From a virus (lineage: Duplodnaviria; Heunggongvirae; Uroviricota; Caudoviricetes): a stretch of DNA of 5,809 bases. The notes below the pieces were generated by a model. It was not told where the DNA came from. It saw only the letters and a program-made list of their open reading frames with translations, and made no database searches. Shown piece after piece: positions 1 to 5,809 of the stretch (position 1 is its first letter; each line of letters opens with the position of its first letter). The DNA lies in IMG/VR virus record IMGVR_UViG_2563366935_000009; one strand, given 5' to 3'. The position numbers and the translations under genes are program-made.

Positions 1-153
1 AACCCAGACACGCAGAGTCTCTGGCGTACAGCCAATCTTTGGAGCAATGGAACAAATTGCCGCCCATTGTGAGTGATATTCGCCCTGACTTTCCAGAACC
101 ATACGAACTGCCCGTTGACGGACTTCGGGGGAAAAACGAGTATTTTTAGTCAT
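1..153 (-). CDS. IS3-family transposase OrfA, N-terminal 51 codons (partial; continues beyond the window)
   Basis: The - strand ATG at 153-151 opens a frame reading [51 protein letters not shown], which is the helix-turn-helix N-terminus characteristic of IS3-group OrfA proteins. The frame is open to position 1. Confidence 0.75.
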
Positions 154-207
154 CCTGTTTACCTCTTTCTCAGGAAGTTTAGTCTCCAGGATTTCCGGGG
201 CGGTTCA
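1..207 (-). mobile_element. End of an IS3-family insertion sequence (IS629/IS1203-like), truncated by the window edge; the element terminus is at about 207
   Basis: The reverse complement of 154-207 reads TGAACCGCCCCGGAAATCCTGGAGACTAAACTTCCTGAGAAAGAGGTAAACAGG and is followed directly by the orfA ATG. The terminal TGA... end and the 50-60 bp leader before orfA are typical of IS3-family left ends. The IS629 assignment is from memory, not a search. Confidence 0.7.
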
Positions 208-474
208 CTTTAACATTGATGGGATTGTCCCGCCGAAATGCGGGAACCAAAGAGTAGTTGGCTTTGGGGTGACGTGAAGTGCAGCTGCACGACGGCAACC
301 GGAAGATAAGCACCCGGCGCGTCACCGCCAAAGTCAATTCCATAGGCGTTATGCAGCCGCCACCATATTCAAGAAAGCTGCACAAGAGGTAGGAGGATTT
401 ATGTGAATGCATAACTTCAAAACCGAGGTTAATTAAATCTCTCGATCCGAGCATCGACCTATTAGGTGGCGAGA

Positions 475-503
475 TGCTCTTTCTGCCCCTCAGTTCGAGG
501 GGC
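475..503 (+). promoter_or_regulatory. Candidate nutL site: boxA-like TGCTCTTT (475-482) followed by a boxB-like hairpin (485-503)
   Basis: TGCTCTTT matches the boxA consensus (rrn-type TGCTCTTT, lambda CGCTCTTA). The hairpin is GCCCCTC-AGTTC-GAGGGGC (7-bp stem, 5-nt loop) with no downstream T-tract, so it is not a terminator. It lies 56 bp upstream of the N-like ATG. The boxA-boxB spacing (2 nt) is shorter than in lambda. Confidence 0.4.
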
Positions 504-558
504 CAGAAACCACTTTGCAATCACTATCAATTCCAAAGTTGTTTCATCGGAGGTCAAC

Positions 559-858
559 ATGACAGTAGTCATTACATATCTGGCTGACGATAACGCCAGA
601 AATCGCCGCAGAGCACGCAGACAGGCTCAACGTGAACAGGCGATGCAAGAACAGCGACTGGCGCGAAAAATTGCGCTAAAGCTCTCTGGTTGCGTCAGAG
701 CGGATAAAGCAGCATCACTCGGAATCCTTCGCTGCAAGAAGGCAGATGAAGTCGAGAGTAAACAGAATCGTATTTACTACCGCAAGCCACGCAGTGAAAT
801 GGGTGTGACTTGTGTTGGTCGCCAGAAAATGAAATTAGGCAGCAAACCACTTATTTGA
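559..858 (+). CDS. N: N-like transcription antitermination protein (99 aa)
   Basis: RBS GGAGG at 549-553, then ATG 559. There is an N-terminal arginine-rich motif (NARNRRRARRQAQREQ). The C-terminus RIYYRKPRSEMGVTCVGRQKMKLGSKPLI closely parallels the lambda N C-terminus as I recall it (RTWYSKPGERGITCSGRQKIKGKSIPLI). The track ORF 466..858 is an upstream extension with no RBS. Confidence 0.75.
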   Translation: MTVVITYLADDNARNRRRARRQAQREQAMQEQRLARKIALKLSGCVRADKAASLGILRCKKADEVESKQNRIYYRKPRSEMGVTCVGRQKMKLGSKPLI

Positions 859-866
859 GGTGATAT

Positions 867-1337
867 ATGACAAAATCATGGAGCGTACCTTTTCCTGAAT
901 CAGAAACTGAACATGATGGAATGCCTGTTTTCTGGAGATTCCAAGCGACAGTTGAAGAAGATGGAATCAAAATATTCGCACTTCAATATATAGCTTTTCA
1001 TCAGACAGAGCATTATGCATGGTTGGTTCCTGCGCATTGGATTGTTAATTTTAAACCAGCACCAAATCAGTGGTTACAGGAATGGAAACAAAGGAGAAAT
1101 AGATATGCAATTAAGAAAGTAGCAAAAAATGCAGAAAGATCTTTTGCATTCCCGACGAAGAAACTTGCCATTGAAAGTTTATTGCGCCGGAAGAAATACC
1201 ATTTGATGAGAATCAAACAAGATTTGGCTGTTGTATCAACTCTTGTTGATGGGATGAAGAATATTGATACATCAACACCAGGTATTGAATATAACTTTGG
1301 ACACAACCAAGAAACAGAAAACTGGGTGTTTTATTAG
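867..1337 (+). CDS. Hypothetical protein (156 aa), encoded in an AT-rich segment
   Basis: RBS GAGGTGA at 857-863, ATG 867, stop TAG 1335-1337. The region is markedly more AT-rich than its flanks. The C-terminal half is Lys/Arg-rich. I recognise no family. It occupies the slot between N and cIII that holds ral/sieB-type accessory genes in lambda. Confidence 0.65.
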   Translation: MTKSWSVPFPESETEHDGMPVFWRFQATVEEDGIKIFALQYIAFHQTEHYAWLVPAHWIVNFKPAPNQWLQEWKQRRNRYAIKKVAKNAERSFAFPTKKLAIESLLRRKKYHLMRIKQDLAVVSTLVDGMKNIDTSTPGIEYNFGHNQETENWVFY

Positions 1338-1350
1338 TACGAATAAGCAC

Positions 1351-1379
1351 TGTGTATTCATTCCAACGAGTGAATACAC
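1351..1379 (+). repeat. Perfect 9-bp inverted repeat (GTGTATTCA / TGAATACAC) around a 10-nt spacer
   Basis: Read directly: 1352-1360 GTGTATTCA and 1371-1379 TGAATACAC. There is no T-tract after it, so it is not a canonical intrinsic terminator. Confidence 0.5.
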
Positions 1380-1441
1380 GGAGCAATGTCGCTCGTAACT
1401 AAACAGGAGCCGACTTGTTCTGATTATTGGAAATCTTCTTT

Positions 1442-1467
1442 GCCCTCCAGTGTGAGGGCTTTTTTAT
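1442..1467 (+). terminator. Rho-independent terminator (tL-like), first of a tandem pair
   Basis: GCCCTC (1442-1447), loop CAGTGT, GAGGGC (1454-1459), followed by TTTTTTAT. Confidence 0.65.
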
Positions 1468-1479
1468 ATGCATACCAAT

Positions 1480-1507
1480 AACGCTTCACTCGAGGCGTTT
1501 TCGTTAT
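1480..1507 (+). terminator. Second hairpin with a U-rich tail (weaker terminator)
   Basis: AACGCTTC / GAGGCGTT stem (8 bp with one G-U pair), ACTC tetraloop, followed by TTCGTTAT. It lies immediately upstream of the cIII-like RBS. Confidence 0.4.
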
Positions 1508-1531
1508 GCAATCAAACAGAAGGAGCATCCT

Positions 1532-1702
1532 ATGCAACAGTTCGCTATTGCAGGGGCGGCATCGGTTCGCCCTTTCAACCCGATTTTATCGGTACAGCAT
1601 TCACGAAAAAACATTTTAACCGGAGCAGACTTTAAACAACCAAGAATGAAAAGCTTGCTCGAAAAGCTTTGGGATATTTTGAAACAACAAGGCCGTCCAT
1701 GA
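1532..1702 (+). CDS. cIII: cIII-like small protein (56 aa), a putative FtsH-inhibitor family member
   Basis: RBS AGGAG at 1521-1525, ATG 1532. The N-terminus MQQFAIAG and the segment SLLEKLWDILKQQG resemble lambda CIII (MQYAIAG ... SLLERITRKLRDGWKRLIDILNQPG, from memory). Its position after N and the tL terminators matches lambda cIII. Confidence 0.5.
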   Translation: MQQFAIAGAASVRPFNPILSVQHSRKNILTGADFKQPRMKSLLEKLWDILKQQGRP

Positions 1703-1857
1703 GTTTTACGGATAACTGGTCAGACGAAGAATTCATTCGTCAGATAAAAGAATTAATCGGTAACGAAGGAGATATTCATGTCACTTGCAACCACAGTGAA
1801 GGAGAGCAAGTTACAGAGACGCATGTACACGCAGAAAGCTCTCTGGTATCGCCATAA
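1699..1857 (+). CDS. Small strongly acidic hypothetical protein (52 aa), in the kil/gam-equivalent position
   Basis: ATG 1699 overlaps the cIII-like stop (ATGA). The product MSFTDNWSDEEFIRQIKELIGNEGDIHVTCNHSEGEQVTETHVHAESSLVSP has about 11 acidic and 2 basic residues. There is no strong RBS; translational coupling is likely. Confidence 0.45.
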   Translation: MSFTDNWSDEEFIRQIKELIGNEGDIHVTCNHSEGEQVTETHVHAESSLVSP

Positions 1858-1958
1858 TGGTGACCGCGAAGGAATGCGGGTATGCCTTAATTTGTCCCGA
1901 GTCGAAGTATTAAATCAGCGTTATTTCCTTGGGCCGTGTCCATTCTGAGAGCAATCAT

Positions 1959-2564
1959 ATGAGCAAAGAATTTTACGCAAGACTGGCAGCTATTCAGGAG
2001 AATCTGAACGCGCCAAAGAATCAGTACAACTCATTCGGCAAATATAAATACAGAAGCTGCGAAGATATTCTTGAAGGCGTTAAGCCGTTACTGAACGGTC
2101 TGTTTTTATCAATCAGCGATGAAGTTGTGTTGATTGGTGATCGGTATTACGTGAAAGCCACGGCAACTATTACCGATGGCGAAAACAGTCATACGGCAAC
2201 CGCTCTTGCACGAGAGGAAGAAAGCAAGAAAGGAATGGATTCTGCACAAGTTACGGGAGCTACAAGCTCTTATGCACGCAAGTATTGCCTCAATGGTTTG
2301 TTCGGCATTGATGATGCGAAAGATGCAGATACAGACGAGCATAAACATCAGCAGAACGCAGCAGCAAAGCAATCAAAACCATCACTTACACCTGAACAGG
2401 TTCTAAAAGCATTCACTGACGCAGCAATGCAGAAAAACACCGTAGAAGAGCTTAAACAGGCGTTCGCCAAAGCGTGGAAGATGCTCGAAGGGACGCCGGA
2501 GCAGCACAAAGCGCAGGACGTTTACAACATCAGACGAGACGAATTAGAAGGGGCAACTGCTTAA
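1959..2564 (+). CDS. erf: Erf-family single-strand annealing recombinase (201 aa)
   Basis: The translation from ATG 1959 (MSKEFYARLAAIQENLNAPKNQYNSFGKYKYRSCEDILEGVKPLLNGL ... SSYARKYCLNGLFGIDD) matches the P22 Erf sequence as I recall it almost residue for residue at the N-terminus. The track start at 1929 is a TTG extension. Confidence 0.85.
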   Translation: MSKEFYARLAAIQENLNAPKNQYNSFGKYKYRSCEDILEGVKPLLNGLFLSISDEVVLIGDRYYVKATATITDGENSHTATALAREEESKKGMDSAQVTGATSSYARKYCLNGLFGIDDAKDADTDEHKHQQNAAAKQSKPSLTPEQVLKAFTDAAMQKNTVEELKQAFAKAWKMLEGTPEQHKAQDVYNIRRDELEGATA

Positions 2565-2947
2565 TGGCACATTCGATTACAGTAAGACTAAACAAACCCG
2601 CAAGAGAGTTTCAGGGCGGGGAAAATATCGGATTCAACATCCGTGCTGGCGTTCAGTATTACGATCGCCAGACAAAAAAGAAAGAATGGACAAACTACAG
2701 CGCCGTTGTATTTGCCAAGCCGGGAGCGCAAGCGGATTACTATCGTAGCGTTCTGGTTGAAGGAGGCATTGTAGAAATTACCGGAGAAAACATCAGGGTT
2801 GATGTTTATCAGGGGCAAAATGGTCAATCAATCACTCTTGAATTACTGAATGCAAAGATTGGATTTGCAACTTCAGGAAACAGCCAACAGCAGCAAAGTA
2901 GCAATCATCAAAATAATCCTGAATACGACGATTCCATCCCATTCTGA
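2564..2947 (+). CDS. ssb: SSB-like single-stranded DNA-binding protein (127 aa) with an acidic C-terminal tail
   Basis: ATG 2564 overlaps the erf stop (TAATG). The OB-fold-like core (EWTNYSAVVFAK ... GGIVEITGENIRVDVYQGQNGQSITLELL) is followed by a Gln/Ser-rich linker and a C-terminal PEYDDSIPF, resembling the E. coli SSB tail DDDIPF. Confidence 0.65.
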   Translation: MAHSITVRLNKPAREFQGGENIGFNIRAGVQYYDRQTKKKEWTNYSAVVFAKPGAQADYYRSVLVEGGIVEITGENIRVDVYQGQNGQSITLELLNAKIGFATSGNSQQQQSSNHQNNPEYDDSIPF

Positions 2948-2970
2948 TTTAGAAAAATAAGGATTTAATT

Positions 2971-3267
2971 ATGCCAGCGCCTTTGTATGGTGCGGATGAC
3001 CCGCGCCGCTGTTCCGGCAATTCCGTATCGGAGGTGCTGGATAAATTCAGAAAAAACTACGATCGAATAATGTCTCTACCGCAGGAAACGAAAGAGGAAA
3101 AGGAATTTCGCCACTGTATATGGCTTGCAGAGAAAGAAGAACGCGAGCGAATTTACCAGACATCAATCCGACCATTCCGCAAAGCCACATATACCCACTT
3201 CCCTGAATATATCGACCCGCGCCTGCGTAATTACCGCTCACGCTATGGCGCTATCAGTAATGACTGA
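2971..3267 (+). CDS. Hypothetical basic protein (98 aa); positional candidate for an Abc2-like anti-RecBCD function
   Basis: RBS AAGGA at 2959-2963, ATG 2971. Directly downstream of the erf-ssb module, where P22 carries abc2. The product is proline-containing and basic. The family assignment is not verified. Confidence 0.55.
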   Translation: MPAPLYGADDPRRCSGNSVSEVLDKFRKNYDRIMSLPQETKEEKEFRHCIWLAEKEERERIYQTSIRPFRKATYTHFPEYIDPRLRNYRSRYGAISND

Positions 3268-3361
3268 GGAATTTACCATGAGAGGACTTGCTTAAGAGAA
3301 AGAGTTTCGGTTCTGTTAATGACAACAAATATCTGAATGCGATGTGGCGGAGTGGGAAGAA

Positions 3362-3880
3362 ATGAAACAAATGTCACTAATTGAGATGGATGGTTTTCTG
3401 AAAGGTAAATGCATCCCAAGTGATTTAAAGGTTAACGAAACAAACGCTGAATACCTTGTCCGTAAGTTCGGTGAACTTGAATCAAAACTGGAAACGGCGT
3501 TGCGGGAGTGTAGTTCTGCTGGAATCACGATTGATAACCTTGAGGCTAAATGCGCGAAGATGGCTGCTGAAAATACCTCACTTAAGCAATCTGAGAAGGA
3601 ATTTAATGACTTTTGTCGTGAGGAGTTTAGCGAATGGGAAGATGATGTTACTGAAACCCCAGCCACCGATGCTTTTCTGGCTGAAGTGCGGGCGCAGGGG
3701 GTGGATGCTGCTATAGAAGCTGCAAAAAATCTGGTGGCCCAAGAATATGAGTATAAGGATTTCAAAGCGGCGCAGAGTGATTGCTGTATGCACCCTGGTT
3801 CAGACCTGGTAGGGAAGGTTGAAATGACTGAGTGGTTAGTTGACTTTGCTGCCCAGCTTCGCAAAGGAGGCAACCAGTGA
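3362..3880 (+). CDS. Coiled-coil hypothetical protein (172 aa), Ea22-like by composition and position
   Basis: GGAG at 3349-3352, ATG 3362 (an in-frame GTG at 3344 is an alternative). The product is Glu/Ala/Lys-rich with heptad-like segments (LESKLETALREC, NLEAKCAKMAAENTSLKQSEKE). The stop overlaps the next start (GTGA). Confidence 0.6.
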   Translation: MKQMSLIEMDGFLKGKCIPSDLKVNETNAEYLVRKFGELESKLETALRECSSAGITIDNLEAKCAKMAAENTSLKQSEKEFNDFCREEFSEWEDDVTETPATDAFLAEVRAQGVDAAIEAAKNLVAQEYEYKDFKAAQSDCCMHPGSDLVGKVEMTEWLVDFAAQLRKGGNQ

Positions 3881-4176
3881 CTGTATGTCTTATTGATAAA
3901 CGTCGACGTGGGCAACAAATACCATCTGTTGAAATGCCGAATCACACATGGTTTTGCGTACTTGATATCGATGGTATGGATACGTTGGTTGACACTCGTC
4001 ATTACTGCGATACCGCAACAGCTACTCCGGCGAAAGCAAAGAAAATGGCTGCTCTGATAGAAAACTGGACTCCACCTGATGGTTGGTGCAATGGGAATGA
4101 TCGAGATTGGCACGAAAAAATGAAGGGCTATATCTGCGATTTTTTACGTAAATGCAACGGCTTCAGGGGGATGTGA
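3877..4176 (+). CDS. Hypothetical protein (99 aa)
   Basis: AGGAGG at 3864-3869, then GTG 3877 overlapping the upstream stop. Stop TGA 4174-4176. I recognise no family. Confidence 0.5.
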   Translation: MTVCLIDKRRRGQQIPSVEMPNHTWFCVLDIDGMDTLVDTRHYCDTATATPAKAKKMAALIENWTPPDGWCNGNDRDWHEKMKGYICDFLRKCNGFRGM

Positions 4177-4177
4177 T

Positions 4178-4750
4178 ATGACCAAAATTAACTATCAGGC
4201 ACTGCGTGAGGCGGCAGAACGTGCAATTCCGGCAATGGAACGCCTGTTAATGTTGCCAGTTGATGATGATTTGTTAAGTGAACAGGAACTTAAGGATTAC
4301 GGTGTGGATATTGATGCGCTCAACGCCTTCAAATTTCTGACCGGACCAGAAACCGTGCTGGCGCTGCTGGATGAACGGGAAAGAAACCAGCAATACATCA
4401 AACGCCGCGACCAGGAGAACGAGGAAATTGCGCTAACGGTAGGGAAGCTGCGCGTTGAGCTGGAAGCTGCAGAGAAGCGCATTGCAGAACTGGAAGCCGA
4501 ACCTGTAAGCCAAACTTACAAGTTGAACGAGCTGTCGGGCAACTATCCGGTAACTCCGGATGGTTGGATAAGCTGTAGTGAGCGAATGCCCGCTCAAGAT
4601 GATTGGATTTTAATTTATTCAAAGCACGGCGAGTATATGGCAGGACAGGTACAAGGGGAATACGTGGAGTTGAGCGACGGCACTTTATCGTGGTTAGGGA
4701 ACGCCTTGTACTGGATGCCTCTACCGGAACCGCCGCAGGAGGTTAATTGA
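4178..4750 (+). CDS. Phage protein with an N-terminal coiled coil and a C-terminal DUF551 domain (190 aa)
   Basis: AGGGGG at 4165-4170, ATG 4178. The C-terminus DGWISCSERMPAQDDWILIYSKHGEYMAGQ ... LYWMPLPEPP has the DUF551 signature (W..... ERLP ... WMPLPEPP). The N-terminus resembles Ea22-like coiled-coil proteins. Confidence 0.7.
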   Translation: MTKINYQALREAAERAIPAMERLLMLPVDDDLLSEQELKDYGVDIDALNAFKFLTGPETVLALLDERERNQQYIKRRDQENEEIALTVGKLRVELEAAEKRIAELEAEPVSQTYKLNELSGNYPVTPDGWISCSERMPAQDDWILIYSKHGEYMAGQVQGEYVELSDGTLSWLGNALYWMPLPEPPQEVN

Positions 4751-5034
4751 TGGTCTCCTTCGCGAAATATACGATTATTGACTGGATAGCATTCATTCAG
4801 GTTTTGCTCATCTGGTTTTATATGGCTTACAGGAGTGGACAGTGGATTGTCAGTGTAGCCTGTAGCAATGGATGGCGTTGGTGGAACCGAAAGAATAAAA
4901 AAGCGCTGGCCTTGGCTTCGTTTTACGAAGCATTCAATCTTAACAGTCTTCAGCCTGGTTCTGTCGTTGTAGTCACCACTCAAAGCGGCATGACGATACA
5001 AATTCACAAGCCAAAGGAGGAAGGTCGTGGCTAA
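4750..5034 (+). CDS. Small predicted single-pass membrane protein (94 aa)
   Basis: AGGAGG at 4737-4742, ATG 4750 overlapping the upstream stop (TGATG). Hydrophobic segment YTIIDWIAFIQVLLIWFYMAY, followed by basic RWWNRKNKK. The 3' end overlaps the next gene by 8 nt. Confidence 0.55.
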   Translation: MVSFAKYTIIDWIAFIQVLLIWFYMAYRSGQWIVSVACSNGWRWWNRKNKKALALASFYEAFNLNSLQPGSVVVVTTQSGMTIQIHKPKEEGRG

Positions 5035-5311
5035 CCTGCAACTTGCCGTTAAAGGTGAATACTTCGATGCCATGATTCGCGGAGAGAAAACGGAAGAGTA
5101 TCGCCTGTGTAATGACTACTGGAATAAGCGAATTATGTTCCGCGAGTATGACCGCCTGATTATCACAAAGGGATATCCGAAGCGCGACGATTCCAGCCGC
5201 AGAATTGACGTCCCGTATGACGGATATGAAATCAAGACAATCACACATCCGCACTTCGGCGATAAACCGGTAAAGGTGTTCGCTATAAAGGTGAATATCG
5301 ACAATGAATGA
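5027..5311 (+). CDS. ASCH/PUA-like fold protein (94 aa), tentative (DUF3850-like)
   Basis: AAGGAGG at 5014-5020, then GTG 5027. The N-terminal pattern LQLAVKGEYFDAMIRGEKTEEYRL ... YDRLIITKGY resembles the beta-barrel signature of ASCH-type domains (from memory of HELKI.PEYFEAV.SGKKTFEIR ... GD.L.L). Confidence 0.5.
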   Translation: MANLQLAVKGEYFDAMIRGEKTEEYRLCNDYWNKRIMFREYDRLIITKGYPKRDDSSRRIDVPYDGYEIKTITHPHFGDKPVKVFAIKVNIDNE

Positions 5312-5315
5312 TAAT

Positions 5316-5342
5316 CCTCGCACTCGCGGGGATTTCTTTTAT
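5316..5342 (+). terminator. Rho-independent terminator, first of a tandem pair downstream of the ASCH-like gene
   Basis: CCTCGC (5316-5321), ACTC loop, GCGGGG (5326-5331), followed by ATTTCTTTTAT. Confidence 0.5.
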
Positions 5343-5347
5343 CTGAA

Positions 5348-5370
5348 CTCGCTACGGCGGGTTTTGTTTT
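5348..5370 (+). terminator. Second terminator-like hairpin with a UNCG-type loop
   Basis: CTCGC (5348-5352), TACG loop, GCGGG (5357-5361), followed by TTTTGTTTT. Confidence 0.5.
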
Positions 5371-5383
5371 ATGGAGATGATAA

Positions 5384-5551
5384 ATGCACTTCCGAGTCAC
5401 AGGTGAATGGAATGGAGAGCCATTCAACAGAGTTATCGAAGCAGAGAACATCAACGACTGCTATGACCACTGGATGCTGTGGGCGCAGATAGCACATGCA
5501 GACGTAACTAATATTCGAATTGAAGAACTGAAAGAACACCAAGCCGCCTGA
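5384..5551 (+). CDS. Small hypothetical protein (55 aa), not in the supplied ORF track
   Basis: GGAG at 5373-5376, 7-nt spacer, ATG 5384. The product is MHFRVTGEWNGEPFNRVIEAENINDCYDHWMLWAQIAHADVTNIRIEELKEHQAA. The stop TGA 5549-5551 sits in the loop of the downstream terminator. Confidence 0.45.
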   Translation: MHFRVTGEWNGEPFNRVIEAENINDCYDHWMLWAQIAHADVTNIRIEELKEHQAA

Positions 5552-5566
5552 TGGCGGTTTTTTATT
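5541..5566 (+). terminator. Rho-independent terminator immediately upstream of xis
   Basis: CCGCC (5544-5548), TGAT loop, GGCGG (5553-5557), followed by TTTTTTATT. Confidence 0.65.
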
Positions 5567-5608
5567 GCCTGATTTGCAGGTTCGATTCCCTATTCGGAGA
5601 TAGCACTC

Positions 5609-5809
5609 ATGCAACACGAACTACAACCTGATTCACTGGTTGATTTGAAATTCATCATGGCCGATACTGGCTTCGGTAAAACCTTCATCTATGACCGGAT
5701 TAAGTCCGGCGACCTGCCAAAAGCCAAAGTTATCCACGGGCGAGCAAGATGGTTATATCGTGACCATTGTGAATTCAAAAATAAGCTCTTAAGCCGCGCC
5801 AATGGGTAA
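5609..5809 (+). CDS. xis: AlpA-family excisionase / DNA-binding protein (66 aa)
   Basis: GGAGA at 5596-5600, ATG 5609, stop TAA 5807-5809. The winged-helix pattern TGFGKTFIYDRIKSGDLPKAKVIHGRARWLYRDHCEF matches the AlpA/Xis family motif (TG.S...IY ... G.FP.P.K.G.R...W...D...W). It sits at the distal end of the early-left operon, where xis-int is expected. Confidence 0.7.
   Translation: MQHELQPDSLVDLKFIMADTGFGKTFIYDRIKSGDLPKAKVIHGRARWLYRDHCEFKNKLLSRANG

Follow-up and report, generated by a model that had tools for sequence, protein, structure and literature searches.

What does the gene that directly follows the erf and SSB-type genes in this stretch of phage DNA encode? The window (the whole analysed stretch of 5,809 nucleotides) has a reading frame in this slot, for which a sequence-only reading had suggested either an Abc2-type protein, i.e. 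a relative of the anti-RecBCD protein 2 of phage P22, or else some unknown function in a conserved position. We found that the first suggestion is almost certainly right: we have very little doubt that the product is an orthologue of P22 Abc2 that looks functional, and that the gene belongs to a CUS-3-like (P22-like) prophage of Escherichia coli. The gene and its ribosome-binding signal are as follows.

2959–2963, plus strand: Shine–Dalgarno sequence AAGGA of abc2, 7 nt 5′ of the ATG, read from the sequence
2971–3267, plus strand: abc2, anti-RecBCD protein 2, 98 aa (PF11043, 206.8 bits; PHROG 656; 92.9% identity to P22 Abc2; named as an anti-RecBCD protein in RefSeq)

As read from the sequence, this frame runs from an ATG to a TGA and specifies a product of 98 aa, and a spacer of 23 nt separates it from the end of the SSB-type gene. 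Its coding status is secure because it has full-length, high-scoring matches to curated families and also matches 240 protein clusters. An open reading frame on the minus strand (3047–3241, 64 aa) was considered as an alternative coding reading and dropped, as it is the plus-strand frame that has the full-length family matches. The general description of the gene given earlier is accurate: it is the first gene after erf (1956–2564) and the SSB-type gene (2564–2947), its 98-aa product is basic, if mildly so (pI 8.95, with 19 lysines and arginines versus 16 aspartates and glutamates and a net charge of about +3), and several prolines are present (seven, at positions 2, 4, 11, 37, 68, 78 and 83).

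Family membership is supported by several collections. In Pfam, residues 1–98 align with positions 1–97 of the 97 positions of the PF11043 profile (Bacteriophage P22, anti-RecBCD protein 2), and the score is 206.8 bits where the family's gathering score is 25; PHROG 656 (abc2 anti-RecBCD) is matched with an E-value of 7.8e-57; and the sole PDB match is the Abc2 chain of 8B1T/8B1U ('Anti-RecBCD protein 2', chain A of 8B1T; E 1.4e-56, residues 1–98 on 1–97). No NCBIfam model matches the protein. The RefSeq name for the identical protein is 'phage anti-RecBCD protein' (WP_001111304.1), i.e. this is a well-known gene that had already been annotated in public genomes.

An alignment to P22 Abc2 had been proposed as the check on the assignment, with a lack of detectable similarity as the outcome that would count against it; the similarity is in fact very high, with 92.9% identity in a tblastn comparison over the full length (97–98 residues). 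There are seven differences from P22 Abc2 (L32R, A65S, K76H, I78P, an inserted Y80, D87N and N98D). Residues 1–64 are the same in both proteins apart from L32R, whereas the differences are concentrated in the C-terminal tail (K76H, I78P, D87N, N98D and Y80, the last of which makes the window protein one residue longer). Arginine at position 32 is the only change from P22 within the ordered region, and it is common as a natural variant, with 17 out of 95 cluster representatives carrying it. Both phages carry abc2 in the early-left operon, downstream of erf, but their hosts differ: E. coli for the window prophage and Salmonella for P22.

The residues known to matter for the function of Abc2 are conserved as well. 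In the cryo-EM complex, Abc2 contacts RecC through A3, R13, C14, S15, G16, Y30, I33, M34, L36, E39, K41, K44, E45, R47 and H48 (Figure 4-source data 1, PMC9836394); the window protein has the same residue at each of these 15 positions, and none of the seven differences from P22 falls on one of them. The link of Abc2 to a host prolyl isomerase, which the sequence-only reading had brought up, is real: Abc2 co-purifies with E. coli PpiB, the mutation P68A abolishes this co-purification, and Pro68 has been placed in the isomerase active site of PpiB (PMC9836394). Pro68 is present in the window protein and is invariant in all 95 cluster representatives and at all 271 loci of the family survey described below; of the seven prolines, it is the one with a known role. 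Judging by sequence, then, the predicted binding surface for RecC and Pro68 are both intact. Both RecBCD and PpiB in the published structural work came from E. coli (PMC9836394), which is also the host of the window prophage.

The genomic context agrees with this identification. The window is an early-left operon, that of a CUS-3-like (P22-like) prophage adjacent to dsdC, and its genes are, in order, an N-like antiterminator, a 156-aa gene, cIII, the arf-position gene, erf, ssb, abc2, several ea-type genes and TorI/Xis. The part from 1699 to the end shares 99.9% identity with CUS-3 and phiv205-1, both phages of E. coli, the recombination module (1699–3294) is 96% identical to HK97, and from 208 onwards the window has 99.98% identity to prophages adjoining dsdC in ATCC 11775 (the type strain of E. 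coli) and others. Of 5,426 complete E. coli genomes, 1,101 carry abc2, and so do 226 phage records; the family as a whole makes up just 240 clusters in a collection of 5.8 billion proteins, and those with a name all come from Escherichia or Salmonella.

Several other features of the operon were observed. The cIII allele (1532–1702, 56 aa) is of the HK140/Gally/PhiR12 type; it was detected by profile search alone (PHROG 550, E 1e-22) and missed by tblastn with the P22 query. The window does not have the segment 1526–1698 in common with HK97, CUS-3 or phiv205-1. A kil gene, present in these three phages, is absent between cIII and the arf-position gene of the window, and Kil of P22 was not found in the window by tblastn. 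Directly after abc2 there is a remnant of a DUF2737 gene (3279–3365, at the position of P22 orf56 and HK97 gp38), which RefSeq gives as incomplete, with the N-terminus missing: about 60 bp are missing compared with HK97, and a 15-bp stretch (3280–3294) aligns on either side of the gap. RefSeq gives the last gene (5609–5809) as TorI, an inhibitor of a response regulator that doubles as an excisionase. Its place is at the end of the prophage, beside attR and dsdC, and this side has no integrase.

At the other end, positions 1–207 of the window are the end of an IS3-family insertion sequence: the start of OrfA, on the minus strand, matches Pfam HTH_Tnp_1, the segment has 97% identity with an IS3-family copy that is annotated in L008, and the terminal repeat ends at 207. 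The element abuts the leader of the early-left operon at 207/208, downstream of the likely PL promoter. In an intact relative (L009), the sole sigma-70-like site between cI and N is TTGACC-17-TAAATT (2423–2451), and the 207/208 junction corresponds to a point about 50 bp downstream of this site. Homology to intact prophages begins at 208, past the likely PL, and therefore PL is separated from the genes N through abc2 in this genome, so that expression of abc2 from PL may be disturbed here. A scan of both strands of the window (1–5809), based on consensus match only, found no sigma-70-like promoter site, versus 8.7 ± 2.0 in dinucleotide-preserving shuffles; this lack may be due to selection that keeps internal promoters out of a long, antiterminated operon.

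These observations give rise to the most serious of the alternatives, namely that the gene is an intact Abc2 orthologue but silent, a passenger in a crippled prophage whose N-to-abc2 operon has been split from PL by the IS3-family insertion. The insertion-sequence end itself, the start of homology at exactly 208, just past the only cI–N sigma-70-like site, and the complete lack of such sites in the window would all fit a silent gene. The abc2 reading frame, however, is unbroken, and many intact prophages have an identical copy of it; PL may sit about 1.3 kb further upstream, beyond the insertion sequence and outside the window; and N-mediated antitermination or an outward-reading promoter of the insertion sequence could drive expression. 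We consider silence of the gene unlikely on balance, but a possibility to be reckoned with in this particular genome.

The genes upstream of abc2 show what kind of recombination module the orthologue belongs to.

1699–1857, plus strand: small gene at the position of arf with an acidic product, 52 aa when counted from the ATG at 1699 (PHROG 2123, residues 11–62 of a 62-aa open reading frame)
1956–2564, plus strand: erf, single-strand annealing protein, the recombinase thought to be fed by Abc2-modified RecBCD (PF04404 ERF, 150.9 bits; PHROG 155)
2564–2947, plus strand: SSB-type gene, 127 aa, in the abc1 slot of P22 (PHROG 44 'single strand DNA binding protein', E 3.4e-29)

The window Erf is 75% identical to P22 Erf over residues 1–201. 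The start of the SSB-type gene overlaps the erf stop codon by 1 nt. Its product is recognised by PHROG 44 only: it has no Pfam match, its match to TIGR00621 is weak (19.1 bits versus a cut-off of 53.95) and RefSeq labels it as hypothetical. The equivalent protein of HK97, gp40, likewise matches PHROG 44. The SSB-type protein ends in DDSIPF, the kind of acidic tip by which SSBs recruit partners. The arf-position gene is equivalent to arf by position and at most a putative homologue; all that it has in common with P22 Arf is a 10-residue SDEEFI motif (pairwise E 0.007).

In one respect the earlier description of P22 has to be corrected. It had the anti-RecBCD genes in the order erf, abc2, abc1, whereas the order on the P22 transcript is erf, abc1, abc2. 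No abc1 was found in the window by tblastn with P22 Abc1 (best E 2.5), and it is the SSB-type gene that occupies the slot. Erf, SSB and Abc2 are all present, but this is not a full copy of the P22 module, given the absence of abc1. In P22, Abc1 is needed for full recombination activity (PMC9836394).

The window module is instead of the HK97/CUS-3 type (Erf, SSB and Abc2, without Abc1). The order erf–ssb–abc2 is common to the window, HK97, CUS-3 and phiv205-1, whose module DNA is 96–99.9% identical to that of the window, and an SSB-type gene in the abc1 slot is found in these three lambdoid relatives as well as in the distant phage MagusPhagus. The Abc2 proteins of HK97 (gp39), HK022, HK620 (HkaJ), CUS-3 (hkaJ) and phiv205-1 are 96–100% identical to the window Abc2; that of HK97 is without the Y80 insertion. 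Other pairings exist: in HK620 and in Stx phages such as TL-2011a, abc2 is paired with Sak4 and a different type of SSB, not with Erf. The HK620 gene called 'abc1' has been shown to encode an SSB (PMC5928155), and a 2025 survey catalogues lambdoid recombination modules with SSBs and Abc2 (PMC12315714), i.e. the erf–ssb–abc2 arrangement has been published before.

We surveyed the family at 271 loci encoding 116 distinct Abc2 proteins, and could identify the upstream gene at 266 of these loci. The genes found directly upstream of abc2 were the following.

PHROG 44-type SSB: 92 loci
HK620-type SSB: 57 loci
Abc1: 57 loci
Rv2179c-like 3′–5′ exonuclease: 47 loci
HNH-like gene: 12 loci
other: 1 locus

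The HNH-like gene (12 out of 266 loci) encodes 155 aa. The Rv2179c-like 3′–5′ exonuclease (182 aa; PF16473, 244 bits) before abc2 at 47 out of 266 loci is noteworthy because phages encoding Abc2 have been said to be without an exonuclease of their own (PMC9836394).

The C-terminal tail, residues 67–98 (window positions 3169–3264), is absent from the cryo-EM models of Abc2 (PMC9836394). It is nevertheless the best-conserved third of the protein, with a mean frequency of the commonest residue of 0.875, versus 0.760 for residues 1–52. In the Abc2 of MagusPhagus (35% identical), the tail keeps 17 out of 32 positions, versus 12 out of 52 in the N-terminal part. The tail holds the invariant Pro68 and a motif with the consensus E-x-DPR-x-R-x-YR-x-R-x-G. 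We tentatively suggest that it may be the real effector arm, adapted either to RecB/PpiB of the host or to whichever phage partner takes over the single-stranded DNA, a proposal to which we give only a limited chance of being correct.

Residues 78–80 of the tail occur in two states: F-I-E goes with Abc1 upstream (53 out of 57 loci) and F-P-E(Y), the variant that the window protein carries, goes with an SSB upstream (145 out of 149 loci). But the host genus shows the same split: residue 78 is isoleucine in 36 and proline in 2 cases in Salmonella, and proline in 22 and isoleucine in none in Escherichia. As the tail variant follows the upstream gene and the host genus equally well, partner and host effects are inseparable in this set of loci and we make no claim of partner specificity.

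The two tail states bear on a further alternative, in which this is an Abc2-family protein whose function has shifted: with an SSB in place of Abc1 and with P78 and Y80 in its tail, it might couple RecBCD to another partner, or act mainly as a shield against RecBCD. Besides the association of tail and upstream gene, it could draw on the report that co-expression of HK620 abc2 and sak4 gave no stimulation of oligonucleotide recombineering (PMC5928155). Such recombineering, however, has no need of end resection, so this result says little about RecBCD hijacking; the tail split matches host genus too; and the whole RecC-binding surface is unchanged. A shifted function therefore seems quite improbable to us. 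The remaining alternative, a DNA-mimic inhibitor of RecBCD that blocks the DNA-binding site like lambda Gam or T7 gp5.9, has nothing in its favour other than the position in a recombination module and a general anti-RecBCD role, and we reject it with hardly any reservation on grounds of charge and homology: with its pI of 8.95 the protein is basic, unlike the strongly acidic DNA mimics, it is not similar to either Gam or gp5.9 and its only PDB match is Abc2, and the site on RecC to which Abc2 binds is away from where DNA enters, so that the helicase is not inhibited by it (PMC9836394).

Gam, gp5.9 and Abc2 are all phage early proteins that counter RecBCD, encoded in or near recombination modules, but the first two are unrelated to Abc2 in sequence and in mechanism: both form acidic dimers that sit in the DNA-binding site and shut off every activity of RecBCD, whereas Abc2 leaves its helicase and nuclease active (PMC9836394). 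It is for P22 Abc2 that binding to RecC, loss of the response to Chi and co-purification with PpiB have been shown (PMC9836394), and it is by homology with P22 Abc2 that the following biochemical steps are proposed for the window orthologue; what the window itself contributes is the sequence identity, a full set of the listed contact residues together with Pro68, and the position of the gene.

By this analogy, the N-terminal helices (residues about 3–52) would bind to the Chi-recognition ('inactivated helicase') domains of host RecC, at a site which, in the P22 case, lies beside the latch and the channel through which single-stranded DNA is proposed to leave. With Abc2 bound, RecBCD would keep its helicase and nuclease and lose its response to Chi and its support of RecA-dependent recombination. 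The proposed consequence, which even for P22 is an inferred one, is that the single-stranded DNA made by RecBCD would be passed to the phage annealing protein Erf rather than to RecA, and in the window prophage the phage SSB probably assists Erf. Pro68 would dock in the active site of host PpiB, after which the conserved C-terminal tail may extend in the direction of RecB; any role of proline isomerisation in this is likewise putative, in P22 as well as here.

The value of the locus as a discovery is small, as the gene, the family, the RecBCD-bound structure and the erf–ssb–abc2 type of module have all been published and annotated. Its practical value lies in a clean annotation: a prophage with a RecBCD-hijacking module of the HK97/CUS-3 type. 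The only lead is the tail of Abc2, which is missing from the structures, is under the strongest constraint, and varies with the host genus and the partner gene; this constraint points to where the remaining part of the Abc2 mechanism might lie.
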